A stretch of DNA of 32,000 bases from Candidatus Saccharimonadota bacterium (GCA_016699265.1 CP064967.1:360001-392000); one strand, 5' to 3'; shown: positions 2,484 to 32,000, counted from the first letter of the stretch. Made by a program: numbers and translations. Notes: a model not told the origin generated them from the sequence alone.

Positions 2484-2714
2484 TTATCTTAGTTTATATT
2501 TACGATTACCGGTCACCGATCCAAAGGAGGTGATCGGTTTGTGTCTATTAATATTTGATGCAATGTGAGTGTGAGGATGTTTAAGTATATAGGCTATAAC
2601 TGCGGTAGCAACGCAACCAACAATCGTCAATGATGGGTATAACAGAGGGTGACGATCATTATAGTCAAAGTCTCCTCGAACAGATCCTCTCACTATCTTT
2701 TCATGTTTACTCAT
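2484..2714 (-). CDS. small membrane protein (76 aa, one predicted TM helix)
   Basis: Its ATG overlaps the upstream gene's stop (ATGA). An extended -10 (TGATATAAT, 2721-2729) lies 6 nt upstream. The hydrophobic stretch is SLTIVGCVATAVIAYIL. Confidence 0.5.
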   Translation of the reverse strand: MSKHEKIVRGSVRGDFDYNDRHPLLYPSLTIVGCVATAVIAYILKHPHTHIASNINRHKPITSFGSVTGNRKYKLR

Positions 2715-3604
2715 TTATACATTATATCATTAAGGACTGTTCTGACGGTCTGCTTCCACCTTTTCGTTTTTATGCGATCAATGAATGTTTCCTTTTTACA
2801 TATAAGACTTACCGCATGGACATCGTCCGTGGTTGGTATCAACGTATCATTCGACTGAACATACATTATTGAAAGAGGATTTGACAGATGATCGAGTCCG
2901 AGACCGTGACCCAGTTCATGTTCGATGGTATGAATGAGTTCTTGTTGACTGTTGTTATAGTATATTGATATCGTTTTAGAGGCAGATTCGAATAATCCTT
3001 CTTCTGGTTTAGACTTCACCACGGTTTGAAGAGTAGTTATGTTGCCATTCAGTTGTTCTATTTTTGTGTTTATATCGTTAGTGGTAAGCTGTAGGGTACG
3101 GGCCTCAGCACTAATCTGCTTAGTCAACTGTTCAAGCTCTGTCTGTTCGGCTACGAGCTTGCCATACTCCTCCTCTGTTTGTGTTGAGCTTTTATTCCAG
3201 TTACTTACCTTATCATTAAATGACTGTACTTTTTTATCCAGCTCATCTGAACGTTTTTTAAAGTCGTCAATTCTCGACTGAAGCGTCGACTTGTCTTGAT
3301 TCACTGCGCTTTTTTCAGTGTTGACCTCCGAGGCTATTGCCTGTCTTTCGTCGTAAACCATCTGAATGGTAATTGGTTTCTCTGCTGTTGGATTGTAGGT
3401 GAACAAATCTTGTCCCGTTGCCGTCTCCCAGTACCGCTCCGCCTCCTTAATGTTCTCAAGAACCTGCATTCTTGTAAGATTGAATCTGGAATCAATGCTT
3501 CCAATTGTATAGCTCACAGTCTTGTCGCAGATATTTGGAAGTGGATAATAATATGCAAAACCCATCATTCCTAAAATAATTGCCAGATACACAATCCACC
3601 TCAT
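2711..3604 (-). CDS. membrane-anchored matrixin/metzincin-like zinc metalloprotease with a central coiled-coil segment
   Basis: HELGHGLGLDH (HExxHxxGxxH) is followed by SIMY (Met-turn). There is an N-terminal TM helix. A roughly 130-aa Q/E/K/T-rich heptad-like segment (residues about 95-225) lies between the N-terminal region and the catalytic motif. Confidence 0.8.
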   Translation of the reverse strand: MRWIVYLAIILGMMGFAYYYPLPNICDKTVSYTIGSIDSRFNLTRMQVLENIKEAERYWETATGQDLFTYNPTAEKPITIQMVYDERQAIASEVNTEKSAVNQDKSTLQSRIDDFKKRSDELDKKVQSFNDKVSNWNKSSTQTEEEYGKLVAEQTELEQLTKQISAEARTLQLTTNDINTKIEQLNGNITTLQTVVKSKPEEGLFESASKTISIYYNNSQQELIHTIEHELGHGLGLDHLSNPLSIMYVQSNDTLIPTTDDVHAVSLICKKETFIDRIKTKRWKQTVRTVLNDIMYK

Positions 3605-4262: not shown

Positions 4263-4336
4263 GGACTCGTAGCTCAGTTGGTTAGAGCGTTGCATTGACA
4301 TTGCAGAGGTCACAGGTTCGAGCCCTGTCGGGTCCA
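4263..4336 (+). tRNA. tRNA-Val (anticodon GAC)
   Basis: Hand-folded cloverleaf: acceptor GGACTCG/CGGGTCC, D arm GCTC-AGTTGGTTA-GAGC, anticodon arm TTGCA-TTGACAT-TGCAG, T arm ACAGG-TTCGAGC-CCTGT, discriminator A. CCA is not encoded. An extended -10 (TGGTAAAAT, 4246-4254) lies just upstream. Confidence 0.9.
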
Positions 4337-4358
4337 CACAAGAAGTATAATAAGGTTA

Positions 4359-4457
4359 GCGGACGTAGCTTCCCGATTTCGATCGGGATCCCGATGGCAG
4401 CGACCATCGGGGCAATTGGTAAAGCTTATAGCTTCCAATTTCGCTACGATCTAAATA
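4359..4457 (+). other. degenerate tRNA-Asp 5'-half duplicate carrying a 42-nt double-hairpin insertion; tRNA-derived structured element
   Basis: The first 12 nt (GCGGACGTAGCT) equal the 5' end of tRNA-Asp at 4458. After removing 4371-4412, the sequence CAATTGGTAAAGC continues the tRNA-Asp D arm with 2 mismatches. No T arm or 3' acceptor strand follows. Three hairpins are present (4371-4388, 4390-4411, about 4414-4440). A TATAAT (4346-4351) lies 7 nt upstream. Confidence 0.6.
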
Positions 4458-4530
4458 GCGGACGTAGCTCAATTGGCAGAGCACTTCCCTGTCACGGAAG
4501 GGGTTGCGGGTTCGAGTCCCGTCGTTCGCG
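4458..4530 (+). tRNA. tRNA-Asp (anticodon GTC)
   Basis: Cloverleaf: acceptor GCGGACG/CGTTCGC, D arm GCTC-AATTGGCA-GAGC, anticodon arm CTTCC-CTGTCAC-GGAAG, T arm GCGGG-TTCGAGT-CCCGT, discriminator G. CCA is not encoded. Confidence 0.9.
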
Positions 4531-4578
4531 CAGTTAGTTTAAGGTTGATTTTGATCTTCAGAAGAGTACTCTTGTACA

Positions 4579-6421: not shown

Positions 6422-7297
6422 ATGTACACCCATACACTAAAAAAACTTCCCAAAGGAACATTTGAGATAACGGTCAAGATGCCGTGGGCGATGATCGAGA
6501 AGGAAACTGAAAAAGCTTTTCAGACCCTAGCAGAGATGCTCGAGGTTGAAGGATACCGAAAAGGAAAAGCACCCAAGGAACTTGCTAAAAAGCAGATAAA
6601 GAAAGAAGCGATCTATCAGCAGATCATTCGAACGCTCTTTCCGGACATATATGCCGAGATAATCAAGAAGGAAGAATTGAAGCCGGCAATCTCTCCCCGT
6701 GTTGATCTTAAGCAAGCGAAAGAAAACGAGGACTGGGAACTGGTCTTTACACTTGCAGAAAAACCATCTGTAAAATTGGGAGACTACAAAAAGACGCTTG
6801 CAGACATTAAGGTAAAAAGAGGCAAGGCAGATATATGGGTTCCGGGTACTGAGGCCAAACCTGTGGATGATGACAAGGAAAAGGCGCGAAAGCAGCAGGA
6901 ACTCTTAAACGAGATGCTAACCGCATTGCTACAATTGTCAACTGTCGAGATTTCTGAGTTTATTCTTGAAGAAGAACTGAACAGCAGACTGTCACGCCTT
7001 GTTGACGATATTCAGAAGCTAGGAATGAACACAGAGACCTATCTACAGTCCAAAAATATCACCATGGAGCAGCTACGAGAGCAGTTCCTCAAGGAGATTG
7101 TTGAGACACATAGTCTTGAGTTTGCTCTAAACGAGATTGCTGAAAAAGAAAATATTTCGGTAGAAAATGATGAGCTTGAAAAACTTTTTGTTTCAATTAA
7201 AGATAACAAAGAGCGCGTTGCAGCGATGCAAAATGCATACTACTACGCCGCTCTATTACGCAAACAGAAAACACTTGATTTTCTCTTAGGCTTATAG
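6422..7297 (+). CDS. tig: trigger factor lacking the central PPIase (FKBP) domain (291 aa)
   Basis: The N-terminal ribosome-binding signature GYRKGKAP (GFRxGxxP) is present. The C-terminal arm region is helical and charged. The length is about 140 aa shorter than canonical trigger factor. Confidence 0.75.
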   Translation: MYTHTLKKLPKGTFEITVKMPWAMIEKETEKAFQTLAEMLEVEGYRKGKAPKELAKKQIKKEAIYQQIIRTLFPDIYAEIIKKEELKPAISPRVDLKQAKENEDWELVFTLAEKPSVKLGDYKKTLADIKVKRGKADIWVPGTEAKPVDDDKEKARKQQELLNEMLTALLQLSTVEISEFILEEELNSRLSRLVDDIQKLGMNTETYLQSKNITMEQLREQFLKEIVETHSLEFALNEIAEKENISVENDELEKLFVSIKDNKERVAAMQNAYYYAALLRKQKTLDFLLGL

Positions 7298-9306: not shown

Positions 9307-9378
9307 GCACCCATAGCTCAACGGATAGAGTACTGGTCTTCGGAACCAGTGATGAGAGTTCGATTCCCTCTGGGTGCA
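9307..9378 (+). tRNA. tRNA-Arg (anticodon TCG)
   Basis: Cloverleaf: acceptor GCACCCA/TGGGTGC, D arm GCTC-AACGGATA-GAGT, anticodon arm CTGGT-CTTCGGA-ACCAG, T arm GAGAG-TTCGATT-CCCTC (one A:C mismatch), discriminator A. Confidence 0.8.
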
Positions 9379-9501
9379 CGTGCGATAGAGTATCCCGATT
9401 TCGATCGGGATGATGAGAGTTCGATTCCCTCTGGGTGCACGTGCGATAGAGTATCCCGATTTCGATCAGGATGATGAGAGTTCGATTCCTCTCTGGGTGC
9501 A
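9379..9501 (+). repeat. two tandem tRNA-Arg-derived partial copies (61 and 62 nt) with the anticodon arm replaced by a UUCG hairpin
   Basis: Each unit reads CGTGC-GATAGAGTA-[TCCCGATTTCGATCGGGA]-TGATGAGAGTTCGATTCCCTCTGGGTGCA. The flanks are identical to the 3' D-loop and to the variable loop, T arm and 3' acceptor of the adjacent tRNA. Copy 2 has one substitution and one 1-nt insertion. Confidence 0.85.
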
Positions 9502-16995: not shown

Positions 16996-18255
16996 TTAAG
17001 ACTCTCCTCGCTTATAAAAGCCGAGCTGGTAGAGAATAATCTGGAAGCGCTCCATCCATGTGCGATTTTTCTTTGTTAGTCGAATTTTCAGACTGTGAAT
17101 ATTTTGTTTATCTCGTGATGGGGTACGAAACTGTGAAGAAAAATATCCTTCTTTGACAACTGTAGCATTATTAAAATCTTTTGTTGAGACGAAGCTGTAG
17201 ATTCCTTGAGTGTCTGAAACTACCATATCTATATCTTGTATACCCACCATTGCGCCGGAAATAGGATTGTCCCACTCGTCAACTACCTGACCCGTAGTTT
17301 TAATTGGATCAAAGTACTCGCGTAGAGTATTTACTGCAGATTTCGGTTTAAACTTATCGTCAAATATCTTGGTCGATCCTCCAAATGCCGTCCAGTAGTT
17401 GATTCCTTTTACAATATCTCGGTGTTTCGCCAGTTCTTTCAGATTGGCTCGGATAAGACGATCTTGTTCCCAGTCGCTCAGATCACCGTGAATATCTGGG
17501 ATGGGTGCGCCGTACTCTCCCAAGACGATTGGGAGATGATTTTGAGCATAGAGTTCTTCTATGTCTCGGATAAGTTCTTCCGGTGTTTTTACATAGTGAT
17601 CAATAACCTGAACTCCACCTGATTGCTCAAGTACATACTTCGGAATCATTTTAGCCACATCACCATTAGTTGAAAAATAGCCACAACTTACAGTTCTACT
17701 AATTGCTGCGAATGCATTCATGCAGTTTGCATAGGATGCGGGAAGAAACTCAAAAAATTTCTTTTTTATATCCTCTCCCTGTCGAGGATCACCAAATCCT
17801 CCGTTCTCTGGTTCTGGTGCAGGGGTAAAAATATCTCCCTCTTTAAAGAGATCTGGATGTTTCGTTATAAAAGCATAGGTCTTATCATTATGCTCGTTTG
17901 GATCCTTAAACTTTTCATATCCGAACCACCCCTCCCAAGCACTGAAATTGCCTCTAAACCAGACATTTAAGCCGTGTTTACGGGCCTCCACTACCCATGT
18001 CGCAAGAACGGGATAGAACTCCTCATCGTACGGTGTTGATATTGCAATATGGCTTGGATGAATCTCGGCTACCTTGTCTACAAGAAGCGGGATTTGATCG
18101 GTCACATCTGGATTGCGTGCCGCGTCTCGTGAGTACTTCATCGTGTCTACCGACTGGACCTCAAATAGCCGGTCGCTCGCATGAACATTACCATTAAACA
18201 TAGAACTTAGAACGTAAAGTGCAAAAATAAAAATCAAAATTAAAAACTGTTTCAT
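16996..18255 (-). CDS. secreted protein, putative TIM-barrel glycoside hydrolase with a C-terminal carboxypeptidase-regulatory-like beta domain (419 aa)
   Basis: Signal peptide present. NVWFRGNF / VLGEYG-type acid and nucleophile-like motifs. The C-terminal GQVVDEWDNPISGAMVGIQ...DTQGIYSF pattern is present. The functional call is tentative. Confidence 0.5.
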   Translation of the reverse strand: MKQFLILIFIFALYVLSSMFNGNVHASDRLFEVQSVDTMKYSRDAARNPDVTDQIPLLVDKVAEIHPSHIAISTPYDEEFYPVLATWVVEARKHGLNVWFRGNFSAWEGWFGYEKFKDPNEHNDKTYAFITKHPDLFKEGDIFTPAPEPENGGFGDPRQGEDIKKKFFEFLPASYANCMNAFAAISRTVSCGYFSTNGDVAKMIPKYVLEQSGGVQVIDHYVKTPEELIRDIEELYAQNHLPIVLGEYGAPIPDIHGDLSDWEQDRLIRANLKELAKHRDIVKGINYWTAFGGSTKIFDDKFKPKSAVNTLREYFDPIKTTGQVVDEWDNPISGAMVGIQDIDMVVSDTQGIYSFVSTKDFNNATVVKEGYFSSQFRTPSRDKQNIHSLKIRLTKKNRTWMERFQIILYQLGFYKRGES

Positions 18256-18293: not shown

Positions 18294-19902
18294 TTAATTA
18301 CTGATTCTTCGAAAAATCAGAATCTCAGGTGAGGTATAGACCTTTTGAAAGTACTTATACAATCGTCCTCTTACCTTTGTGTCGTCATAGACAGCCTTCC
18401 AGACCGTATCATTTTTTTGCATCACAATCCATCTTGCATAGCGCTCAGGAGCTACGAGTGATTCGGCCCAGTACGGTTTATTACCAATATAGATGCTGCT
18501 TTGCATAGGAATACCGGTACGGACAAGACTTACTGTACGAGCATAGTCATCCATCAAGACAAGTCCATTATCGTAATTATCTTTAAGCCAACGTTCAGCA
18601 ATTGGTCTTTTTGCGTGGGATAGTCCGACTACGCCATCTTCCCAGGTAATGACCTTCGAGTATCCGACAAAATACAGACCAAACTGAAGAATAAACAACG
18701 CCACAATCAAAGCACGTCCGCCAGATTTTGAGCGATTCCACAACCACCCAGAAAAAATTGCAGCAAACGGTACTGCCATCAGTCCATATCGAACATTAAA
18801 TAAACGCCACTCAAAATCTACCGGTGTAAGATGAGGAATAAATATGACCGACTGACCGACAAAAAGAGTAAAGATGTAAAAGATAAACGGCGTAAGTAAA
18901 ACAAATGAAATTAGGAATCTCTTCTTCGCCTCTTTATGCAGAAGGTACGAAATAAATCCAACTACTGCCATAAAAAATACAATAATGCCAATATTACTCA
19001 TTGCGGTTACGAGGTAGTATGCGACTGCGGAACCAATGTTATGAAAGCTGGGTAACTCACCTCTTGACAGCCAGTTGGCTTGCTGAGTCTTGGCCGAGAA
19101 TTCACTGTTAGAGAAGTAGAGTGCATCGCCAAGGATGAGGAAATCCCACAAAAACCATAGGGCAATACCAAAAAATGCAGGCGTTGCATATAGTAAGACC
19201 TTACCCTCAAGCTTTTGCCATAGAGGTTTCCCTTCTTTGAAGACTCGCGTAATATACATTCCAAAGACAGTAGCTCCTTGAAAGGCAACTAAGAACCAAC
19301 CATCGTAGCGCGTAAGAGTTGCGCAGAATCCAAAGAAAGCCGCCGCAACAAGCGAGAAGATAAAGCTATCGTTTCTGATAAATCTGATAAAGAAGTAGAT
19401 AGACAAAACGAAGAACATTATTAAGGTCATCTCGGTCATCGGAGTGGTCTGCATGTAGAGAATGTTGGGATTAAGCATGAAAACGAGAGATGCAAAAAGT
19501 CCTGCCCACCGATTGCGCGTCAGGAGCCCTGTTGTTTTAAAAATAAATACAGAACTCACAATATATGCGAAAGATGAGACGATAGATCCAGCAAGTCCCG
19601 TCCGCCATAAAGGATCGAACCAGATGAACGGAATCATTAAGAGGTGTGGAAATAGGAGCCATATTCCACCTAATTGAGCAAATCCTGGCGTTATGCTACT
19701 CACAACACGCTTAGCAATATTTAGGTGCGACTCAGCATCACCATAGGATACGATGTAGTCGTGAAAAATAAGACCAAGCAATTGCGGTCCAGCTAAACAC
19801 AAATGCCATTACAGCAATAACAATCTGCCATCTCGTATTACGATATACATCGCTCAGCCAATCCTGAATTGTTTTTGTCGGAATACTAAATGTTAGATTC
19901 AT
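18294..19902 (-). pseudogene. GT-C fold membrane glycosyltransferase (ArnT/PMT, GT39-like) with one frameshift near the 5' end
   Basis: Two ORFs (19738-19965 and 18294-19802) join as ..FSWTAIAWSYF|HDYIVSYGDAESHLNIAKR.. if the A5 run at 19764-19768 is shortened by 1 nt. The protein has more than 10 TM helices. The likely start is the ATG at 19902. Confidence 0.7.
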
Positions 19903-21428
19903 GATTTTTTCAAAAAAGAGGAAAACAAATAACAATATTAAGACAATAAACAGCAGCGACCCCAAATTATGTAGAAATATTCATAGAGGGTAAACGTAGA
20001 TCGTAAATAAGTGTTATAGATAAAATTACCGGTTTTATCTATGCCCATGAGCTCAAAGGCGCGCATGAAGTTGTAATATGGAATTTTAGGAAGTCAGCCT
20101 CAATTTTGGAGGAATCGCGTTTGTTGTCAATGCTCCTCCGAGCGCTACCGCTGATGAAAAAAACAAAAAGGAGGTAAAATCCAAGTCGCTTAAGCATAGA
20201 GTACGACCCTTTACTAATACCTATTGTAACTAAAATAGAGAACGCTGCCATTGCCGGAACAAGATACCTTGGTCCATAAGCCCAACCACCCCACGGATCA
20301 CTCCAGCTGGAATATACGAACATGCTTGAAAGAATGAATGAAAACAAATAGAAAAACTCTAATTTTGCTTTTTATTATACTGCCAGAATGAAAGAAGAAA
20401 TAAGATCAGTATAGGTGAAAAGAAAAAGAGTCCCTTATCATTACCCACCGCTAGTGTTTTGAAACCTTCAGGAGTTTCTTCTTCAGATAATGAGTTGAGA
20501 ATTGGTGGCCGACTATACTTAATTGGTTCAGTTTTTTTGGAAACCGTCAATTGGTTAGTAAGCTTTCCATTAATAAAAGCGTATCGAGGAAGCTCATTTG
20601 CGAGCTTTGTCCAATGTCCAAAGATAGTTTGATTTCGATAAAGATGCAGTATGTTAAAAGTCATGAAAATGACAAGCATTACAAAAAAGCAGGCTTAAAA
20701 TTAATCTTTACTTTATTTTTTAATGACTCGGTACTGAATGACGAAGCAAAGAAATAAACACCTAAAGGCGAGAGAGTTAGCGCATTTGGATAATCTATGA
20801 ATAGAGCCAATGCGTAGAGTGATCCGACCAGTATTGCGTATAGATAAACAAGACTATTCTTGGCATTTTTATACTTCCAAGTAAGATAAAACATTAACAT
20901 GGCGATAAATGCAGTTGGGGCATGTTGGTAGATAGTTATTGAGTAACTCCACGCTGTGGTAGCGAATGCAAAGGTAAGTGGAGCAAGAATTGATGCCCAA
21001 ATAGGAAGTTTGAAGATATTTCGAGAAATTAAGAAAATGAGTATGATGGTGCCGACGGTTAGCAGACCCATTACTGCAAATGCTGACAGTGATCCTAGAT
21101 TGTAATTCTGACCTATGATGTATCCGCCTAGAATTAGGTACGAAACACCTGAGGGGAAAAAACTGTAAATTTTATCTCCGTCGTAACCTGCGTCAGGTGA
21201 GGCAAATAAACCTAGTTCTTTACCCAATTCGATAGTTCCTCTATCTTTGATTGCGAGCATTTCCGCATAGGGCGCACGCTCATGTGAAGACTCGAACGGT
21301 AGAGTTTCAGCATTCAGTCTACTTAGTTCAGGTATTGATTCATGATTCCCATATTCTCCACGAAGCGTTGCGGTAAGTAAAACAGCGCTAAGTACTATGA
21401 GGAATATAATGGATAATATCTTTTTCAT
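19899..21428 (-). pseudogene. second GT-C fold membrane glycosyltransferase, fragmented by at least 3-4 frameshifts
   Basis: Fragments 20679-21428, 20359-20679 and 20039-20347 are contiguous pieces of one polytopic protein. The junctions lie at A6 20683-20688 and T5 20369-20373. A further frame (..IPYYNFMRAFELMGIDKTGNFIYNTY..) continues to about 19899, so the 3' end is uncertain. Confidence 0.65.
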
Positions 21429-21472
21429 AACTATATCAATCTATATCAATTATACCACGAAACAGAGAGGTT

Positions 21473-22715
21473 TTATGAGCCAAACTGTTTTGTCCACAGT
21501 TTGAGTGTAACTGAATCTAAAGGGAGTACCACATCATCAAATGTCAGGAAGTCGTCCTTAGCAACATCTCGCTTAAGAATGAGGTTTTCTGCAAGACCTA
21601 TGGGAAGAAGATTTTCTTTTCTTGCGACTGGACTATTCTCACAGACTCCATACATTGTGTACCCACCCATGACATCAAGCTTTTCCCCTTTTTTCATGTC
21701 TTTCTTCATTGCTGTTATTACCTCAACCAATGGTTTATCTCCTACTGCGACAAGAGTGTCGTCTTTATGCAAAAATGCTCGAGCAATTGAAGTTGGAGTT
21801 TCAAAATGGCAAAGATGATACGGTGCATAAAAAGGATAGATCGGTCCTTCCCCAACCTTATACAAGTTTAGATAATGTTTTTGAATAGGATCATCATGAG
21901 TAGCAAGTACAAAAATTCCTCCGTTAGGAACCGGACCAACTAAGTAATCAACAATACCTGTTTTGCTATTTACCAACTCATCAGCGCTATATTCTTTCAC
22001 TGCTTTTTCTAGGGGAGTTCCTGACTCAACGGTGAGTCCATGCATACCACGCTTGGCTACGGTCATACCGGTACCATTGGCAACGCAGGCTTGCTCAAAA
22101 GAGATTTTAGTTCCATCGGCGAAGGAGGTCACCATATAAGGATTTTGTCCCCATTTTTTTGCAAATGATTCCTGAGTGGTTGGGTTTCTGTATGGATCTT
22201 GAAGACCTTTGATGTTTCCACAAAGAACTGGTTTAAGACCAAGTCCTTTAACATAGCGGTAAAGATTCATCTGTACACCAGGTTGATCGCCATCTGACAA
22301 TGTGTAGACAACTCCAGCTTTTGTGCGAGATCTCTAAGCGCATACCCGATGGTACCATCGACTTCAGCGTTCATGGAGACAACATGCTTCTTGTGTGCAA
22401 TTGCATCGACAATAACATTGGTTCCATACTCTATGGCTCCCGTTACCTCAACTATGACATCGATATCTTCGCTTTGTGTGAGATCTTTGTAGTTGTCGGT
22501 CACTACTACTCCCCGATCTTCAGCTTTTGCTTCCTTGAGAATTGCATGCGCTTTATCTGTAGTTCTGTTGGCTATTCCGACCAACTTCATTCCTTTAGTG
22601 TAGTTGAGGATCTGAATGGCTATACCACGCGCCATGAAACCAGCTCCAATCAGACCAACTCTGATGGGAGTGCCTTTTTCTCTAGTTGTTCGAGTTCCTT
22701 ATCGATTATTATCAT
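21473..22715 (-). pseudogene. NAD(P)-dependent oxidoreductase with C-terminal SAF domain (homoserine-dehydrogenase-like, COG4091 type), two frameshifts
   Basis: The pieces MIIIDKELEQLEK|KGTPIRVGLIGAGFMARG... and ..DLAQK|AGVVYTLSDGDQPG.. join after 1-nt corrections at T5 22675-22679 and T4 22319-22322. A Rossmann GxGxxG motif is present. Confidence 0.65.
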
Positions 22716-22823
22716 AAAAAAGTTATAAGTTCTAAGCTCTAACGCTCAAATAATTTCTAAGTTCTAATAATAAACTTTTCAGATTTATGATTTAGAATTT
22801 ATTTGGATGTTAGGATTTAGTAT

Positions 22824-23349
22824 TTAGGATTTATAATCAGGCCAATTTTTATCTTTATCGCTCATCTCGGTTGGCTCTGATGGCCACTCAATCTTAAACA
22901 TCGGATCGTTCCATCTAATTCCGGACTCAGATTCAGGGAATAGAACTCAGAAACTAAATAGGTAATCTCTGCATTATCGGTAAGTGAGATTTGACCATGT
23001 GCGAATCCTTTGGACAGAGCATTGCTCTATGATTGTCTTCTGAGAGTTCTACTCCAAACCACTGTTTATAGGTGGGCGATTCAGGTCGAAGATCCAGGAT
23101 GACATCAAAGATTGCACCTTTTGTACATCTGATTAATTTATCTTCTTGATGAGGAGTTTTTTGAAAATGAAGACCACGCAACGTTCCTTTCTTTGCACTG
23201 AGAGAAACATTTCCCTGCTTTACTACAAATGGAATCCCGGCTTTATCGAATTCATCAAGACAAAATGATCGACCAAAAACCACGGTCGTCTCCCGTTTTT
23301 CAACCGCAACAACGTTTTTATCTTTTAGTGGTGTTTTGGTAAAGATCAT
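22824..23349 (-). pseudogene. dTDP/CDP-4-dehydro-6-deoxy-sugar 3,5-epimerase (RmlC/cupin family), two frameshifts
   Basis: The first 131-aa ORF carries the RGLHFQ motif. The remainder (..KGFAHGQISLTDNAEITYLVSEFYS | PESESGIRWNDPMFKIEWP..) is found in the two other frames. Confidence 0.65.
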
Positions 23350-23350
23350 A

Positions 23351-24370
23351 TTATTTACTCCAGAATAATTTATTATCTACTTTATGTTCTGACTTTAAAT
23401 ACTCAAGTTGTTTAAGGCGAGTATAAAGACGAGACTTATGCAGTTCTGTAGTGAGGTGTATTTCAGCAAAGATTTTCTGGAGTTCCTCTGCACCTTTTTA
23501 CATTACATTGAGTTTTAAACTCAGGAAGAACCTTTGGATCCTGTCAAAGTTCACACGATAGTTTCGTTTGTCTCCGGTGCTGTCGCCAAATTCTGTGGTA
23601 CAGCCGGGAAAGACCTCAGCAATAATCTCAGCCAACTGTCGCACCTGATAGTTATTGTCATTACTTCCGACATTGAATAGCTGGCCACCAATCGTAGAGC
23701 GTGGAGCGTTAAGCGTTAATCGTACTGCTTCACAGACATCAAGCACATGGACCAATGGTCTCCAAGGAGAACCATCACTGGTCATACGAATTATTTTTTC
23801 GGTGTGAGCTAAGGCACAGAGATCATTTACCACCAAATCAAATCTCATTCGTGGCGATGCACCAAAGACGGTTGCATTTCTAAAGATGGTAATGGTAAAT
23901 GACTCTTCATTCATCTTCATGAGCATCTCTTCGTTCTTGACCTTTGAGATTGCGTAGGCGGTAAGAGGATTTGGTTTAGTACTCTCATCGCTAATGTTCT
24001 CTGAAGCGCCGTAGATGCTACATGAAGAAAAATAAACAAAGCGCTTAACTCCTGCCTGTTTTGCTGCCTCTGCTAAGATCTTTGTTCCACCTTGGTTAAT
24101 CTCAAAGGTAAGCTCTGGATCATTTTGCCCAAGAGGATCATTTGAGAGCTCAGCTAAGTGAACAACCGCCTCAAATCCTTTCAAATCTTCAACCGTAACA
24201 TTGCGAACATCCTTATTGATGAGCTCATACTCAATACCGGATACCGGATACAGATGTCCATCTGCATAGAAATTAGTGTCCAGTCCTACGACATCAAAAC
24301 TTTTTTTAAGAAGCTCTTGTACGAGAATGGTGCCGATGTAGCCTTCTGAGCCCGTAACTAGTACTTTCAT
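23351..24370 (-). pseudogene. NAD-dependent epimerase/dehydratase (extended SDR), C-terminal region disrupted
   Basis: GSEGYIG Rossmann motif and YAISK catalytic motif. The ORF stops at 23498, yet the same frame continues after the TAA with KGAEELQKIFAEIHLTTE..RLKQLEYL... The expected linking peptide VLPEFKTQCNVK is read in the +1 frame, which indicates two opposite 1-nt indels about 45 nt apart. Confidence 0.6.
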
Positions 24371-24373
24371 ATG

Positions 24374-25165
24374 TTATTTCCATACCTTCCATGGAGCCGT
24401 ACCACTTTTCCATTTTTCTTCTAATACATTTCTGTCATGTAAGGTATCCATAGGATGCCAGAACCCCTCATGACGGAACGCCGCTAATTTTCCTTCATGG
24501 GCGAGGTTAATCATTGGTTCCTGCTCCCAGGTTGTGAATTCATCTTTAATGTAGTTCAGAACCTCAGGTTCGCAGACAAAAAATCCTCCGTTAATCCAAC
24601 CTCCACCATCTCCTTTCGGTTTTTCCTTAAAACTCTCAACGATGTCGTCTCCATCATTGAGTTGGAAGAGTCCAAAACGTCCGGGGGGCTGGACTACCGT
24701 AACGGTTGCTAGAGCACCCTTTTCTTTTTTATTTTTATCATGAAATGCGACGAGATCCTTAATGTTTACATCACTAAGACCGTCACCGTAGGTAAGACAG
24801 AATGGTTCATTCCCAATATATTTTTCTGCCATCTTTACGCGACCTCCGGTCATTGCTTTTTCACCGGTCTCTACAAGAGTAACCTTCCAGTTTTCAGCTC
24901 CATTAGAGTGGACATCTTTTGTGTGATTCTTAAGATCAAAGGTAACATCTGCTGTTCTGAGCCACTCATTTTGAAAGTACTCCTTGATCATGTGACCTTT
25001 GTAACCACAAAGAACAATGAACTCTGTGATGCCATATGAGGCATAGATTTTCATCACATGCCATAGAACTGGCTTACCACCGATCTCGACCATTGGTTTA
25101 GGTCTAATACCGGTTTCCTCGCTAATTCTGGTTCCGAACCCTCCTGCTAAAATTACTGCTTTCAT
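24374..25165 (-). CDS. rfbF: glucose-1-phosphate cytidylyltransferase
   Basis: Near-collinear similarity by eye to Salmonella RfbF: [18 protein letters not shown]..[18 protein letters not shown].Y...GI..F..CGYKG..IKEYF ... MTGGR ... TYGDG ... PPGRFG ... EKPKGDG..INGGFFV ... TWEQEP ... FW.PMDTL.D. The 263-aa ORF is intact. Confidence 0.92.
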
Positions 25166-25270
25166 ATATTTATTTATTAAAACTTAACATTTTCATTTTC
25201 TTCATCGAAAAATTATCGGATAGTTTTGATTTTGTAACTTCCTTTGTAAATGGAACTTTTTAGCTTTTTT

Positions 25271-25725
25271 CTATAGTTTTTTATCAAATCTCCAACCAAT
25301 TACTTTTGCAGGTACCCATCCAACAATTGAGTAAGGCGCAACATTTTTAGTGACAACAGCTCCAGCTGCGACTATAGAGCCTCTTCCAATTGTAACACCT
25401 GGCAATATGACTGATTTTGTTCCAATCCAGACATCATCCTCTATTACAATTGGTTTAGATATTTTTTATTTCTAACAGCCATTGGTAATCTCCAGTCAGA
25501 GTAATCGGTATTAGCGGTAATGAAAGTACAGTCGGGAGCGATTGCTACAAAGTTTCCAATCGTAATGTCTTCATCATGAAGTATGAACTTACAGTCTGAG
25601 TTAATAAATACATGATTACCCATCTTTACTTTACTAGGATGAGTGAAAGAACATCGCTTTGCTATTGAAACATCCTTTCCCATGTTTCCTATTAATAGAC
25701 GCCACTTTAAAGTGCTCAAATACAT
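25271..25725 (-). pseudogene. hexapeptide-repeat (LbH) sugar O-acetyltransferase, one frameshift
   Basis: The 93-aa ORF continues in another frame as ..[55 protein letters not shown]... The junction is at the T6 run 25462-25467. Confidence 0.7.
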
Positions 25726-25793
25726 TCTGAGTTTAAATCTTAGCAGTGCTATTTTTCTATCAGTGTTACCATGAGTATATTATACTATAAGTC

Positions 25794-26947
25794 TTAGTGA
25801 AGATGTGAGCTAATAATAGTTTGCAATTTCTGTCCGATGGTTTGTGTGCTGTACTGCTTAATAAATTTTTCGTGGCTATTTTTACTTATGCTCGCTAAAA
25901 GATTTGGATTTTTTGTACAGTTGTCCGATCTTTTCTGCCAAGTCTGAAGAATCTGAAGGTTTAGTAAATAATACATCCTCCCGATCGTTAAAAAGGGATC
26001 TCACAGCCTTAGATTCAGCAGTGACAACCGCCTTCCCAAGAGACATACCTTGGTAGACTTTATTCCCTACTACCCTATCCACTATTGGGTGTTTCTGAAA
26101 AATCCTAAGAAAATATGTCCTTTTGAGAGCGTTGCTAATGAGTTTGCTTCGGTTAAGGCTGTAAGAAACTTGATGTTTGTGAGGTTTAGTTTCTTCATGA
26201 GTGTTTGATTATCGGCTAAAGTGTAGCCTTTTCCTACCAACAAGAATGTTACTGATATATTTTTCAGTTTTTCAGCTGCTTTTATAATTGTTTCAACTCC
26301 GTGTAGTTGGCTATAGAGTCCGTAATAAACCACGACGAGCTCATCACCTTTTTGTAAGGTGTGTAGCCAGTAAATTTGTACACTTCATCATCCGCTCCAA
26401 TTGGCAAAACCTCGATATTTTTATTGGGAACATGAAAATGGGAACTTAAAAATTCCTTCTGGAAAGGTGTGTCGGCAATCAAAACATCTGGTAGCTTGTA
26501 GACAAACTTTTCAAAGTTTTTAATTATGTCAAAAGAACACCACCGCGATTAAGAAGTTTTTTTTCTTCGGTGAAGCCAACGGAAAGCGTAACTAACGGGT
26601 AAAAAAATAATTTTTTTCCAAGAACCTGCGCCACAAGCCAACACCAAACAACATCTAAGTGCCCTGGATAACCAATGTATAAAGCATCTGATTGCCTAAT
26701 TTTATCTAGATTTGCAAGGGTAACCGGAATCAAATTGAATCTCCTTAATATTCGCTGTACTAATTTTAAAGGCGAGGTTGAGTCGCTATCCTCCATCAAG
26801 GTTACCTTATTTGAAGCATTGATTTCATGTACAGTGATGTTGTTTTTTTCGAAGTGCTTTAATAATAAGTGTGTTGTTAGAATGCGTAGGATCGTAGGCT
26901 CCAATATATGCAACAGTGAGTGGTTTTATGCTTGAAGCGGTATTCAT
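25794..26947 (-). pseudogene. GT1/GT4-family glycosyltransferase broken into at least 6 frame segments
   Basis: Consecutive fragments (MNTASSIKPLTVAYIGAYDP.., 26524-26913, 26282-26482, 26082-26333, 25882-26082, 25794-25976) read as one GT-B protein when joined. The junctions lie at short homopolymers, for example an A7 on the coding strand near 26860. Confidence 0.65.
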
Positions 26948-27844
26948 AATTTTTGGTTGAAAGCGCCAGTACCCAGTTTTTACGATTTCTTATTTTTAGT
27001 TTATGATATAGCTTTATGACAAACTTAAAATATAGTGCCTCGATCGGGTACTTCATGAATACTGGCAGAATTGCTCTTACATAATCCCTTAATGGTATTC
27101 TCCATTCATCATCAACTATACTTCCATAGCTACGCCTGAGTAGTGCGCGGGCGCTCTGAGTTCTATTTTCCTGATTCCAATAGTCTCTAATTGTTTCAGG
27201 AAGTCTATAATCGACCCTCGCATTTTTTTGCAAAAGCATAGTGACCTCCTAGTCGAATATTTTCAAAATATATGAATATGTCTACGTTTCCAGTTGGTGA
27301 GTTTTTAAGATTAATTTTTTAGCTAAGTTTTTACGAAGTGCCATAATTTTGCCTTCAACAGTAAGCTTACTTTTCCCTTCTTTGTATTTATGCCTCAGAG
27401 TGTTGAAAACAAGATAACTAGAATATACACTTTTTCCAACAAAGGACTTGGGTCGCATTGCAATCGGATTGCCATTCACAAGATTTATTCTCCTATCTTT
27501 TATTAATGGAGACACTAAATTATAAATAGTTCTGTCCGAAATAATCCTAATATCGTCGTTAAGTATAACTGTGACATCACTTATCCCTCTTTTAAAAGCT
27601 GAGTCATTGTTTTTAGATGACCCTTATTTTTAGTGCTTGAAGAAAATTCTATCTTTGAGTCTTTCATTTTTGCATCATTTTTATGATCTCATCAGATCCA
27701 TCCGTCGAGCCATCAGAATGAATATGAATTTTCTCAATCACGATGCCCTTACCTTTTGTTGAAGAAGGGCTTTGATTATATTGCCAATATTTTCACGTGC
27801 TTGAAATACTGGAATAAGTATTGTAATCCCGATTTTCTTTTCAT
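26877..27844 (-). pseudogene. GT2-family glycosyltransferase (paralog 3), at least 5 frameshifts
   Basis: Hand-joined pieces: MKRK|IGITILIPVFQARENIGNIIKALLQQK|GKGIVIEKIHIHSDGSTDGSDEII.. | ..ISDVTVILNDDIRII.. | ..NVDIFIYFENIRLGGHYAFAK | NARVDYRLPETIRDYW... The listed ORFs at 27282-27515 and 26877-27239 are internal pieces. Confidence 0.6.
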
Positions 27845-28732
27845 ATTATTTAGAACTTTTGCAATGTGCCAGATATTACTATCGGTTTCCACCAATTTGC
27901 TTTCAATATATACCGATATTTGCAGTAGGAAGTAAAACACTATAAGAGGTGACTGAAGTATAGTTTTAATAAATGATTTGATTATTAGACTAGTTGGAAT
28001 TGCATAAGATTGATTTACTAAATTGAACCCAAATTCTTTAATATTCATTTTTTTGAGTGTTCAAATCGCACGCCTTGAAGTGAGTGATCTTTTATTGATT
28101 TTGGCAGCTGGTATAGAACAATGGCATTTTTAACATACCTATACCCAAAACCATGAGTCTTAGCAAATAAATATGTATATGAATCTTCGGAATTGCTTAA
28201 CTTAAAATCAAACTGTTTGTAAAGAGGTTTTGATACGCTCTCGCTCTTCCTACTGCTGTATAAATATTGTCGCCATTGTTCCAACTTTCAAAATACCGTG
28301 CTTAAATATCATGCTTGCAAACAATATATTTGATAGAAAATTGGTAGGCCTATCTTCTCTAATCTTGGCATAGGTAATGGCTGCCTGACCCTTTACGATC
28401 GGGGTAATGAGATTGTTAATAAACTGTGTATCCGGTATTCGTATATCGGCATCCAGTAGGAGCAGGATATCTGAAGTAGATTTGTCTTTAATTAAATTTA
28501 GAGAGTGTGCTTTGCCTCGGCGCTCACGATTTTCTATGACCTCAACCCTAGTTTTTCGTATTTTCTCCACAACATCGGCTGTCCCGTCGGTAGAGGCGTC
28601 GGAAACTACAATAATTTTCTCCATCAAGAAATCTCGCTGAACCTGCGCTACTAGATCTGCAATTAGCCGTGTGATATTACTGGCTTCATTGTATGCGGGA
28701 ATTCCAATTGTTATTGTCTGTTTATTTTTCAT
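27776..28732 (-). pseudogene. GT2-family glycosyltransferase (paralog 1), at least 3 frameshifts
   Basis: The N-terminus ITIGIPAYNEASNI...VVSDASTDGT...LLLDADI (the DxD region) is intact for 160 aa. It then continues through two other frames (..NNGDNIYTAVGRARAY.., ..SKPLYKQFDFKL..YLFAKTHGFGYRYVKNAIVLYQLP..) into the C-terminal TM segment. Confidence 0.65.
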
Positions 28733-29646
28733 ATATGCGTCTTAATACCTTTCTTAGTGCTCCAGGCTATTGGCCATACCGCGTTCAACTGACCAGCATT
28801 CTTTATTGCAAGATATCTTGAGTAACTATTGAATAATGCGAGACTAAGAAAAGGTATTGGTTTTGTAACTGCAGTAATAACTGCATGTTTGAAATATAAG
28901 TGAATTGGAATTATGTATTCCTTTTTCGCTAATGGTCCAAAAAGTTGTACTAATCGTTTTTTTTTGCTACTATAAATCGTTCGATCTGTTTAAAATGATC
29001 ACTGGCCGTTTTGGGCGCACGATAAAGCACTGTAGCTTTAGGAACGTGTACAAATCCAAATCCAAGAGATTTACAACTAAGATATAGAAAGCTATCGTTG
29101 CACATTATCGTGGATGGTACCTTCACTTGCTTCGCAAACGAATTTGAAAGTGCAAGTATTTGACCTATACATCCTAGTATGTTATTTCCTTGTTTATAAT
29201 CTAAGCGAAGCCTTTGGTACATTTCATGACCAGTCATCGCCGCCCTCTCAATTACGTTTGTTTCTTCAATTTGAATCGGATTTCCACCAACAAGACCAAC
29301 TTTGCTATTTTTTAACAGTGGTTGTATGAGGTATTCGATAGTTTTGGTCCTTTGAGAACTACATCTGCGTCAAAAAGTACAATAATATCTGACTTAAGAG
29401 ATGAAAAAGCGAATTAAGATGAGTGGATTTACCAATTCGTTTTTTTTATATCAATAATTTGCAAACGTTTATTCTTTACTTGACGAGCCTTCCAGACTGT
29501 ATCATCATTACTTCCGTCAGATATAAGTACAATTTTATCAATACGATAAGAGCGCTCAGTCTGTATAAGAATAGATCGAAGTAGATTCTGTATATTTCTT
29601 CCTTCGTTGAAGGCAGGTATTCCTATAGTTACTGTAGCTTTTTCAT
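28729..29646 (-). pseudogene. GT2-family glycosyltransferase (paralog 2), at least 5 frameshifts
   Basis: Hand-joined pieces: MKK|ATVTIGIPAFNEGRNI..LISDGSNDDT..IIDIKK|RIGKSTHLNSLF|SSLKSDIIVLFDADVV..|..IEYLIQPLLKNSKVGLVGGNP..VLYRAPKT..|..RLVQLFGPLAKKEY... Junctions include T8 29440-29447 and T9 28957-28965. The stop TGA overlaps the ATG of paralog 1 (ATGA). Confidence 0.65.
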
Positions 29647-29710
29647 ATTAGTTTTTCATTAAAATGGTAGTTTTGAGCTCTCTTCCTTTCTGTGAAAATA
29701 TTAGCCATAA

Positions 29711-32000
29711 TTAAGCGTGAAGCTTTTTTTCTGCGCAGGATTTCCAGCTAAAATTATTACCCCACTGCTCACTTTCTCTTGATAACTTAGTTCTATATTT
29801 CTTATTAGATAAGAGTCGATCTATTCCCATTGTAAATGCCTCTACATCTCTCACTTTTACGAGAAGACCAGTTTTGTTATTGATTACCGAGTCCTTTAAT
29901 CCATCTACGTTAGAGGCTACTACTGGAGTACCGCAGATATTTGCCTCGATATTCGTAATTCCCCAGCCTTCAACCTCAGATGGATGAATAGCTATCCAAG
30001 ATTGGGTTAAAATTTTGGCTTTTTCTTCTTCTGTTACCTTACCCATAAAATGTACATTATTCTGAATTTGGAGTCTTGCAACGAGACTTTCGAGTTTCAT
30101 TCTATTTTCTCCATCTCCAGCGATGTTTAACTGAAGTGTCGGGTATTTCTTTTTCAATCCATGTACAGCTTTAATACCAACGTCTATGTTCTTGTAGTCG
30201 CGAAGTCTTCCTATATATACCAAGCTTGGATTGGTAGTTTTTTTTACTTTAGCTTTCTTAATACTTACACCGGGTTCAACAATAAAAATTGGTTTTTTCT
30301 TACCATAACCCATCTTCTCCATCGACTCCTTTGTCGATTTGGAAATAGTCATCATCTGCTGATCTTTGTAGATATATGGCATTGCTTTTTCCTCCAAAAA
30401 CATAGCAATTTTAGAAAGAGGAAAAGGTAATCCTACCCTAAACATTTCTTGGTGAATATGATTTATGAGACCAACAATAGGCTTCTTAATATATAGAGGA
30501 GTGAAGAATGGAACTCCTTTTGCGGTATCTATAACAAGATCGTACTGGTTTCTTAATTTTAGAACGTAGTACAAGAACGCCCATATCGGAACTGTAAATA
30601 GACCACCTCTTCGGATGATGCGAACTCCGTCGATTATTTCATATCTCTTACTATGTCCATCGTTTCCACAAAATAATGTTACTTTATTGCCGTTTCTAAC
30701 GAACTCTTTGGCAAGATTATGTAAGTAATACTCCGCACCACCTGACCAAACATGGCGGATGTCATACCAGTTTACGATTAAGATTCTTTTGCCAAATGGT
30801 GTATAGTTCAATTTTGGCAGTGGTCTAAACAGTTCAGCGAAATCAAGTAAATTAGCAAGAACAAACCCACCATTACGCTGGAGTAAGTGCAACAGAACAT
30901 TTGCTACAAAGGTGGTGAAGCTGGTAAAAAAAACAACATTAACAATGTCTCCAATTGAAGCGTGGTTGTATGAAATACCTGTAATCATTCCAATAGTGGT
31001 TACCAGTGCTACGAAGGAGAAAAGGTAGTGATGACAAATTAAATGGTATACCGTGATTGTGTTGGCAACGGTGAATAAGGCTATGCTCATTGCATACAAG
31101 GTACGATAATCAGCTACAGAAGCCATCTTATCGGCAAAGACGAAGGGTAAAAGAACTGAGCCGAGCGGTCCTATCCCCACAAATGCAACTGTAGTTAGCG
31201 CTACTGTGAGTGAAAAAATCATATAGAAGTTCGTATTGGGATTTCGGTGCGCTCCTTCATCTCGGCTGACAATCGGAACCAGAAAGATATGAAAGAGGGA
31301 ACCGAAAAAGAAAATAATCTTTCCTATTAGTGATAGAAATGCGTATATCCCTGCCTGAGTTGCGGACAGATAATGTTTGACCAAGAGAATATCAAAGGTT
31401 AAAAAGGCATTGGTTGATAGACCTGTAAACATTGATGCGAAGAAGAATGTCTTCATAAACGAGTATTTATGCTCTGATTTGGGTTGTTTGCGAGTTACGA
31501 CCGATGCAACTATTAAGCTAAGTGCTGACGCCAACAAGACAGAGAATGGAATTGAAAGATAGGCAAGTTCTGCATTGCCTAATGACACTGAAGTGAAAGC
31601 AAATCCTAATTTTGAGATTGCTTCAACAAGAAAAAATACCGCGGTCCATACAAAGAGAAAACGTCCATGAACAAATCCCCTTGCTACAGAAGCGAATATC
31701 CCAAACATTATCACCGGAATGAGGGAAATGAGCGGTAGATAAGAATTGACATGAAAGTACCCAAGAAGAAATGGCATCGACACAGACCAGATCAGTGAAA
31801 TCATAATTGCATATTTAATGCACTTTCGCATGATCTGCTTATAAAAAGCTGTTCCAGCTGCAATGCCTGATCTTGCCGTGATAAAGGCGGTACGGTGATT
31901 AATTGTTGCTCCTAATGCACCAAATCCAATACTAAAGATATAGAGAAAAGTGTTTACTAAGGCTATAAGTCCAAAGTTTTCAAAACTTAAGGTTCGACCT
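29711..32000 (-). CDS. fusion protein: Wzx/MOP-type polysaccharide flippase-like TM domain plus C-terminal GT4 glycosyltransferase (5' end outside the window)
   Basis: The listed 706-aa ORF has an N-terminal polytopic region of about 330 aa. Its C-terminal GT-B domain carries EGWGITNIEA (E-x7-E). The reading frame stays open upstream of the listed Met through position 32000 (..RTLSFENFGLIALVNTFLYIFSIGFGALGATINHRTAFITARSGIAAGTAFYKQI-MRKC..), so the true gene is longer. Confidence 0.8.
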   Translation of the reverse strand, partial: GRTLSFENFGLIALVNTFLYIFSIGFGALGATINHRTAFITARSGIAAGTAFYKQIMRKCIKYAIMISLIWSVSMPFLLGYFHVNSYLPLISLIPVIMFGIFASVARGFVHGRFLFVWTAVFFLVEAISKLGFAFTSVSLGNAELAYLSIPFSVLLASALSLIVASVVTRKQPKSEHKYSFMKTFFFASMFTGLSTNAFLTFDILLVKHYLSATQAGIYAFLSLIGKIIFFFGSLFHIFLVPIVSRDEGAHRNPNTNFYMIFSLTVALTTVAFVGIGPLGSVLLPFVFADKMASVADYRTLYAMSIALFTVANTITVYHLICHHYLFSFVALVTTIGMITGISYNHASIGDIVNVVFFTSFTTFVANVLLHLLQRNGGFVLANLLDFAELFRPLPKLNYTPFGKRILIVNWYDIRHVWSGGAEYYLHNLAKEFVRNGNKVTLFCGNDGHSKRYEIIDGVRIIRRGGLFTVPIWAFLYYVLKLRNQYDLVIDTAKGVPFFTPLYIKKPIVGLINHIHQEMFRVGLPFPLSKIAMFLEEKAMPYIYKDQQMMTISKSTKESMEKMGYGKKKPIFIVEPGVSIKKAKVKKTTNPSLVYIGRLRDYKNIDVGIKAVHGLKKKYPTLQLNIAGDGENRMKLESLVARLQIQNNVHFMGKVTEEEKAKILTQSWIAIHPSEVEGWGITNIEANICGTPVVASNVDGLKDSVINNKTGLLVKVRDVEAFTMGIDRLLSNKKYRTKLSRESEQWGNNFSWKSCAEKKLHA

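Follow-up and report, generated by a model that had tools for sequence, protein, structure and literature searches.

Why should ten of eleven consecutive genes in one bacterial locus be split across reading frames, when the genes on both sides are whole? This question was raised by a surface-glycan locus on the minus strand of a 32,000-nt stretch of GenBank record CP064967 (CP064967.1:360001-392000), referred to here as the window. Between 19.76 and 29.65 kb, 34 homopolymer length changes broke 10 of the 11 consecutive minus-strand glycan genes. We concluded that these frame breaks were very probably sequencing errors in a Nanopore-derived, never-polished stretch of a hybrid assembly. This would make them an assembly error and not biology.

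Stop-to-stop maps of the open reading frames (ORFs) were used to see the extent of the disruption. Over 19.74-29.65 kb, the minus strand appeared as short ORFs tiled in alternating frames, and the rest of the window carried gene-sized ORFs. Disruptions were counted by frameshift-aware protein-to-DNA alignment, with frame skips of 1 and 2 nt, of every gene to intact homologs from three loci in relatives (L082, L081 and L008). The counts were combined with the intervals in which neighbouring stop-to-stop ORFs overlap and with base-level inspection. The count for GT-C2 takes in its 3' end, and those for GT2c and GT2a take in the start codons. An initial annotation, made from the sequence alone, had described a 10-kb glycan locus fragmented across frames, and this was borne out by both the ORF maps and the alignments. 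It had estimated about 25-30 disruptions and 11 split genes out of 12. The presence of the disruptions was confirmed, the number was raised to 34, and the split genes were 10 of 11. All the homopolymer runs that it had named (A5, A6, two T5, T4, T6, T8, T9 and a C3 run in the RmlC gene, which is G3 22936-22938 on the plus strand) coincided with junction intervals.

The syntenic loci in relatives were reached by protein search with the intact flippase-GT4 gene. L082 (Logan SRR20074301) had the same gene order, from flippase-GT4 through GT2 and GT1 glycosyltransferase (GT) genes to rfbF, SDR, RmlC-like, DRL and GT-C, and all of these genes were uninterrupted. L081, with partial synteny, was the source of both intact GT-C genes. 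L008, from a Daviesbacteria metagenome-assembled genome (MAG) and reached through rfbF, also showed partial synteny and supplied GT1 and GT2 homologs. The window therefore held what is seen in a patescibacterial surface-glycan locus: the rfbF, SDR, RmlC-like and DRL genes, the GT-C pair, the GT1/GT2 genes and the flippase-GT4 gene, in conserved order. The glycosyltransferase content varied among L082, L081 and L008, which meant that the island was variable within the lineage.

The repaired genes aligned well to these homologs. GT-C1 was identical at 423 of 532 positions (79.5%), end to end, to a 534-aa L081 protein with a single shift. Against L082, 334 of 410 residues were identical for the DRL-type oxidoreductase (2 shifts), 136 of 171 for the RmlC-like epimerase (2 shifts) and 273 of 337 for the SDR enzyme. 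GT2c was identical at 138 of 291 positions to the product of L008 8996-9949, with 5 shifts. In the case of GT1, the identical five junctions were obtained independently with the L008 and L082 homologs. The one unbroken gene among the eleven, rfbF, had been called intact in the initial annotation, and this held: its 263 aa showed 217 identities to L082 and no shift.

The events were of one kind. One base was missing in 27 of the 34, and the other 7 could be read as a gain of one base or a loss of two. Six of these 7 were on runs of 5-8 nt and one was on a 3-nt run. Where the homolog was about 80% identical, the site could be read to the base, and each such site was a run-length change. All base-resolved junctions were in homopolymer runs, of 2-9 nt, and at most of them the DNA or protein of the homolog supported a run longer by 1-2 bases. 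Examples were CCAAAGG (twice), TTCCCTG for ACC CCG, and GAGAAAAAGG. In addition, GTAAAAAGG was found in the window versus AAA AAA in the homolog. At the two sites in the RmlC-like gene, the homolog DNA was ACC CCG and AAG GGA, and at T5 23495-23499 in the SDR gene it was AAA AAA (KK). These were miscalls of 1-2 nt in homopolymers with a strong deletion bias. Under-calling of homopolymers by Nanopore sequencing is a known problem that creates spurious pseudogenes in long-read assemblies. The window resembled such cases in its one- or two-base deletions, in the A/T-rich homopolymers that carried them, and in the ORF pieces that aligned to intact homologs. However, spurious pseudogenes of this type are usually spread genome-wide, and the errors in the window were local, in three blocks within 10 kb. 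The genes, blocks and events are listed in Table 1.

Table 1. Genes of the glycan locus, blocks of frame disruption, and homopolymer events in the window
Feature	Start	End	Strand	Product and matches	Events	Event positions
GT-C1	18294	19902	-	PMT_2-type membrane glycosyltransferase, ~532 aa; PMT_2 match	1	A5 19764-19768 (one base extra or two missing); 18297-19760 clean
GT-C2	19903	21428	-	~510 aa; aligned to L082 and L081 GT-C proteins	7	T6 19905-19910, C4 19960-19963, T4 20084-20087, T4 20104-20107, A7 20157-20163 (extra base or two missing), T4/T5 20363-20373, A6 20683-20688
DRL	21479	22715	-	DRL-type NAD-dependent oxidoreductase, ~412 aa; PF21135 and PF03447 on separate fragments	2	T4 22319-22322, T5 22675-22679 (one base missing each)
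RmlC-like	22827	23349	-	sugar 3,5-epimerase, ~174 aa; PF00908 match	2	G3 22936-22938 (C4 to C3, gene strand), T3 23009-23011 or adjacent C2 (one base missing each)
SDR	23357	24370	-	epimerase/dehydratase, ~338 aa; PF01370 match; codons 1-279 clean	2	near 3' end: T3 23533-23535 (one base missing), T5 23495-23499 (A7 to A5, or A4 to A5)
rfbF	24374	25165	-	glucose-1-phosphate cytidylyltransferase, intact, 263 aa; PF00483 match		
Acetyltransferase	25274	25725	-	hexapeptide-repeat acetyltransferase, ~151 aa; Hexapep matches on both fragments	1	T6 25462-25467 (one base missing; break after AVRNK in three-frame view)
GT1	25797	26947	-	GT1/GT4-fold glycosyltransferase, ~382 aa; Glycos_transf_1 and Glyco_transf_4 on separate fragments	5	T6 25909-25914, ~26095-26102 (A5), ~26340-26353 (T5), A4 26531-26534, T7 26843-26849
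GT2c	26952	27844	-	glycosyltransferase, ~297 aa	6	C3 27215-27217 (extra G, gene strand), ~27302-27320 (T5/T6), ~27590-27614, T5 27667-27682, ~27746-27757, T4 27838-27841 (start codon out of frame)
GT2b	27860	28732	-	glycosyltransferase, ~290 aa; PF00535 match; aligned to L008 6742-7791	3	T7 28048-28054, ~28221-28231, ~28286-28293 (one base missing each)
GT2a	28744	29646	-	glycosyltransferase, ~300 aa; PF00535 match; aligned to L008 5954-6892	5	T9 28957-28965, T4 29342-29345, A5 29404-29408, T8 29440-29447 (extra base or two missing), T5 29639-29643 (start codon out of frame)
Flippase-GT4	29711	32000	-	flippase (Polysacc_synt)-GT4 fusion, intact, runs off window; clean right flank		
Error block 1	19764	20688			8	in 0.92 kb
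Error block 2	22319	23535			6	in 1.2 kb
Error block 3	25462	29643			20	in 4.2 kb

The disruptions were not spread evenly over the locus. The initial annotation had described a rise in density along it. There was no smooth gradient, and the events formed three blocks separated by two clean stretches of 1.64 kb (1,635 bp) and 1.93 kb (23536-25461). rfbF sits inside the second of these. In a homopolymer-weighted permutation, the probability that the second-largest gap reached 1,635 bp was P = 0.003. The blocks crossed gene borders, so that SDR and GT-C2 were each half clean and half riddled, and the N-terminal 245 codons of GT-C2 (20689-21428) were clean. Within the blocks the indel rate was about 0.5-0.9%.

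The flanks were then compared with the locus. Homopolymer density, for runs of at least 4 nt, was 17.7 per kb in the flanks and 21.3 per kb in the locus. With the per-run rates of the locus, about 55 events were expected in the 22 kb of flanks (left about 49, right about 6), and none was found there (P ~1e-24 or less). Flank genes with Pfam matches had full-length domain coverage. The claim that the flanks were unbroken was thus upheld. The same was true of the flippase-GT4 gene, which had been called intact despite long runs. Its T7, T8 and A8 runs were all in frame, and over 706 aa it was 100% identical to NCBI QQR64323.1 (799 aa, 'Candidatus Roizmanbacteria bacterium'). The boundaries were sharp, as expected of an unpolished segment, and adjacent sequence of similar homopolymer content was error-free. 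A region of low GC (0.34-0.37) was also seen at 25000-31000, and its last 1.3 kb lie in the intact flippase-GT4 gene. The error zone ended at 29.65 kb and the low GC at about 31 kb, so these borders did not coincide. This meant that the compositional island and the error zone differed in their right border.

The origin of the record was consistent with such a pattern. CP064967 is the MAG Damh_18-Q3-R51-60_BAT3C.63_uni, from a Danish wastewater plant, in one circular contig of 928,688 bp (Singleton et al. 2021; PMC8012365, Supplementary Data 3), and it stands in GenBank as a closed genome. It is classified as Patescibacteria / Microgenomatia / UBA1406, and by MiDAS as Ca_Roizmanbacteria. It is the species representative of its own cluster at 95% average nucleotide identity, with coverages of 12.3x for Illumina (ilmcov) and 15.5x for Nanopore (npcov) and a non-zero polymorphic rate of 0.0055 (PMC8012365). 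For the '_uni' MAGs, re-assembly was done by Unicycler v0.4.6 with the flags --no_correct, --no_pilon and --mode bold, the last being a permissive setting (PMC8012365, Methods section 18). Only reads that mapped to an earlier CANU bin were given to Unicycler, and later polishing was applied to Flye contigs only, not to the '_uni' assemblies (PMC8012365). Unicycler builds clean contigs from Illumina reads, and where no short-read graph path exists it inserts raw long-read consensus as a bridge, which is repaired in the final Pilon step. Unicycler also drops contigs whose depth is less than half of the median (PMC5481147). In this pipeline, long-read consensus could be inserted and short-read polishing was skipped.

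A sequence of steps leading to the observed blocks can be proposed. A strain-variable glycan island would break metagenome assembly, and would then be missing from the bin or fall below the depth filter. Since only reads mapped to the CANU bin entered Unicycler, a stretch absent from the bin would have had no Illumina reads. With no short-read graph path, Unicycler would have inserted Nanopore consensus bridges, and no Pilon step would have repaired them. The blocks at 19.76-20.69, 22.32-23.54 and 25.46-29.65 kb would be such bridges with under-called homopolymers, and the clean sequence that separates and flanks them would be Illumina-derived contigs. The deletion-biased, homopolymer-restricted profile and the indel rate fit the look of under-called Nanopore runs. 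The flags, the error profile and the locality together led us to read the three blocks as Nanopore-consensus bridges. Like unpolished Unicycler bridges (Wick et al. 2017, PMC5481147), they are rich in errors, have sharp borders and lie between stretches of clean sequence. Error-prone bridges at dead ends of the short-read graph are predicted in the Unicycler paper (PMC5481147), and for the CP064967 MAG it is on record which assembler, version and flags were used. In contrast to logged Unicycler bridges, we infer the bridge status of the three blocks from the error pattern, and we likewise infer the true run lengths that would restore all frames. In the organism, all 11 genes are most likely whole, and they would encode a CDP-6-deoxyhexose pathway and glycosyltransferases. 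According to the initial annotation, sequencing errors that arose uniformly should have hit the flanks as well. This was correct in itself, but it did not count against an artefact. Clean flanks do not rule one out, because error in a hybrid assembly is non-uniform: short-read contigs are clean and consensus bridges are not.

The leading alternative was a real and recent mass pseudogenisation, in which the dominant strain would have lost its glycan pathway and slippage indels would have accumulated under relaxed selection. We considered this unlikely. The disruptions were restricted to one functional unit, the glycan locus, which would suit a lost pathway, and rfbF might have been retained for another one. 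However, the three blocks cut through genes and ignored gene or operon units. The repaired frames were then searched for other signs of decay. In 3,373 codons (41 segments, in homology-supported frames) no stop was found. A random substitution in these frames would make a stop in 4.6% of cases, so that 7-14 nonsense codons were expected at indel:substitution ratios of 0.1-0.2, and zero had P = 6e-7 to 8e-4. Thus 34 indels stood against no nonsense codon. The alignments showed no larger deletions, truncations or insertions, and all 10 broken genes extended essentially end to end with their relatives. The repaired DRL-type enzyme retained all 85 residues that were invariant in a panel of 26 intact relatives, and 40 of the 41 that were near-invariant. 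The repaired broken genes were 79.5-81.5% identical in amino acids to L082, versus 82.5% for the intact rfbF. The locus therefore lacked the marks of a decaying pseudogene cluster: no nonsense codons had accumulated, no gene was truncated or had a larger deletion, and the DRL-type enzyme had not lost its conserved residues.

The distribution of events over run lengths also argued against decay. Real slippage climbs steeply with run length. In the window many events were in runs of 3-5 nt, and several 7-8-nt runs of the same genes were in frame. Genuine pseudogenes with poly(A) frameshifts are known from reduced AT-rich genomes, such as those of insect endosymbionts. They usually have one or a few lesions per gene, on long runs, together with nonsense mutations and deletions. 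The window was like them in its single-base changes in A/T runs of otherwise well-conserved genes, but it differed in having 34 lesions and no other class, clustered irrespective of gene borders. An unpolished hybrid assembly, which is documented for this MAG, predicts exactly the observed pattern.

Several points weighed against an assembly error and had to be considered. In AT-rich reduced genomes, genuine gene inactivation most often comes about through deletion-biased homopolymer indels, and a pseudogenised locus would show these too. If indels arose about as often as substitutions (ratio near 1), a lack of nonsense codons would be unsurprising (P ~0.24), and pseudogenisation gains by this. 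Junctions in the glycosyltransferase genes were placed only to about 15 nt because their best homologs were 35-47% identical. For bridges 1-4 kb long, an indel error of only about 0.5-0.9% would mean that many spanning reads went into the consensus, which is plausible at 15x Nanopore coverage. In addition, none of the collections searched yielded an independent assembly of the same species with which to confirm the restored run lengths. A scan of genome contigs with rfbF gave no close relative (at most 65% identity), and rfbF was too widely shared. A scan of metagenome contigs with the repaired DRL protein gave 34 relatives, all at most 62% identical and none from the same species, and these served as the source of the intact-family panel. 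A concatenate of the repaired acetyltransferase and four glycosyltransferases (1,414 aa), with which the word filter was swamped, gave 4 weak matches, none from the same species. We regard it as improbable that the deposited run lengths are correct, which would leave a Patescibacteria glycan locus with 34 independent homopolymer indels and no other lesion. If true, it would mean either an extremely recent, slippage-dominated collapse of the pathway in a lineage whose mismatch repair is defective, or pervasive transcriptional slippage that sustains expression.

A mixed-strain consensus was also weighed. Here, collapsed variants of the island would have been averaged, and the frame errors would come from divergent haplotypes and not from homopolymer miscalls alone. 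The variable glycosyltransferase content among L082, L081 and L008 and the polymorphic rate of the MAG are consistent with strain diversity. However, the base-resolved events were all simple run-length changes and not mosaic junctions. The repaired proteins were coherent over their whole length, with uniform identity to single homologs. We consider this explanation quite unlikely. It is a variant of the artefact explanation, and the practical conclusion would be unchanged.

In the phase-variable capsule and lipooligosaccharide loci of Campylobacter, Haemophilus and Neisseria, one long tract per gene acts as a switch by single slippage. The present locus is like these in being a glycan biosynthesis locus with homopolymers, surface-glycan genes are classic targets of phase variation in other bacteria, and a few events were on T7-T9 runs; but a contingency locus was practically excluded, and so was programmed slippage, in transcription or translation, that would rescue expression at the A/T runs. 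The broken genes had between 1 and 7 shifts each, on runs down to 3 nt, so that no single slippage restores the frame. The shifts went in both directions, many of them were in runs of 3-5 nt, and some fell on start codons or gene ends. There was no layout of one long tract per gene that toggles the frame, and the A8, T8 and T7 runs of the adjoining intact gene were in frame. Among the three explanations offered in the initial annotation, the poorly polished strain-variable region was thus retained, mass pseudogenisation was disfavoured and the contingency locus was dropped.

Some local features of the broken genes were also resolved. The oxidoreductase named as a SAF protein in the initial annotation was indeed broken, and it was assigned as DRL-type by its PF21135 and PF03447 matches; the split runs between the NAD-binding and catalytic domains. 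For the SDR gene, two shifts had been proposed about an in-frame TAA. The shifts were found (23533-35 and 23495-99), and the TAA (23498-23500) was out of frame once the gene was repaired. As deposited, the 3' end of GT-C2 reads in frame into GT-C1 without a stop (19897-19914), which gives an apparent fusion ORF. In L081 the gene instead continues for six codons in the other frame and then stops. This comparison indicates that the fusion is another one-base miscall, in T6 19905-19910. On the gene strand, the one-base deletions at 23009-23011 and 23533-23535 both lie in the context TCCAAAGG, where basecalling may have failed systematically and not at random. Two other possibilities were examined and rejected. 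An alternative genetic code was rejected in that the breaks were frame changes and not in-frame stops, and the flanks were normal in table 11. In-frame TAA codons seen in GT2a with the L082 query were an alignment artefact, and with the L008 query they became two opposite shifts.

With an unpolished Nanopore-consensus patch as the probable source of the breaks, the locus would be an ordinary, probably intact glycan cluster of the Candidate Phyla Radiation (CPR). Its value is then as a data-quality flag for CP064967. The blocks will be annotated as about ten frameshifted pseudogenes, and these could mislead analyses of gene loss, pseudogene load and glycan capacity in Patescibacteria. Five other '_uni' MAGs of the same study may carry similar blocks.

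The flippase-GT4 fusion (about 800 aa) was widespread in Patescibacteria, with 209 matches at E <= 1e-20. Its neighbourhood was kept in the window, L081, L082 and L008: a sortase, a 740-aa double GT2, the fusion, glycosyltransferases, an rfbF-SDR-RmlC-DRL cassette and the GT-C pair. Small differences in content were seen. L082, the closest relative, has a gene of 117 aa (17876-18229) between rfbF and SDR, and the window is without it. A polysaccharide deacetylase stands in L082 and L081 at the place of the acetyltransferase of the window.

Outside the locus, an Rfam scan of the window gave three tRNAs only and no other match. These were a tRNA-Val(GAC) and tRNA-Asp(GTC) pair at 4263-4531 and a lone tRNA-Arg(TCG) at 9307-9379, all on the plus strand. 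A trigger factor of 291 aa is encoded at 6422-7297 (+). It has Trigger_N and Trigger_C matches with no PPIase domain between them, and because of this it may be a shortened CPR form. In addition, a matrixin-like (Peptidase_M10) protein was found at 2711-3604 (-), in which the match to the catalytic domain is interrupted by about 100 aa with coiled-coil-type matches.

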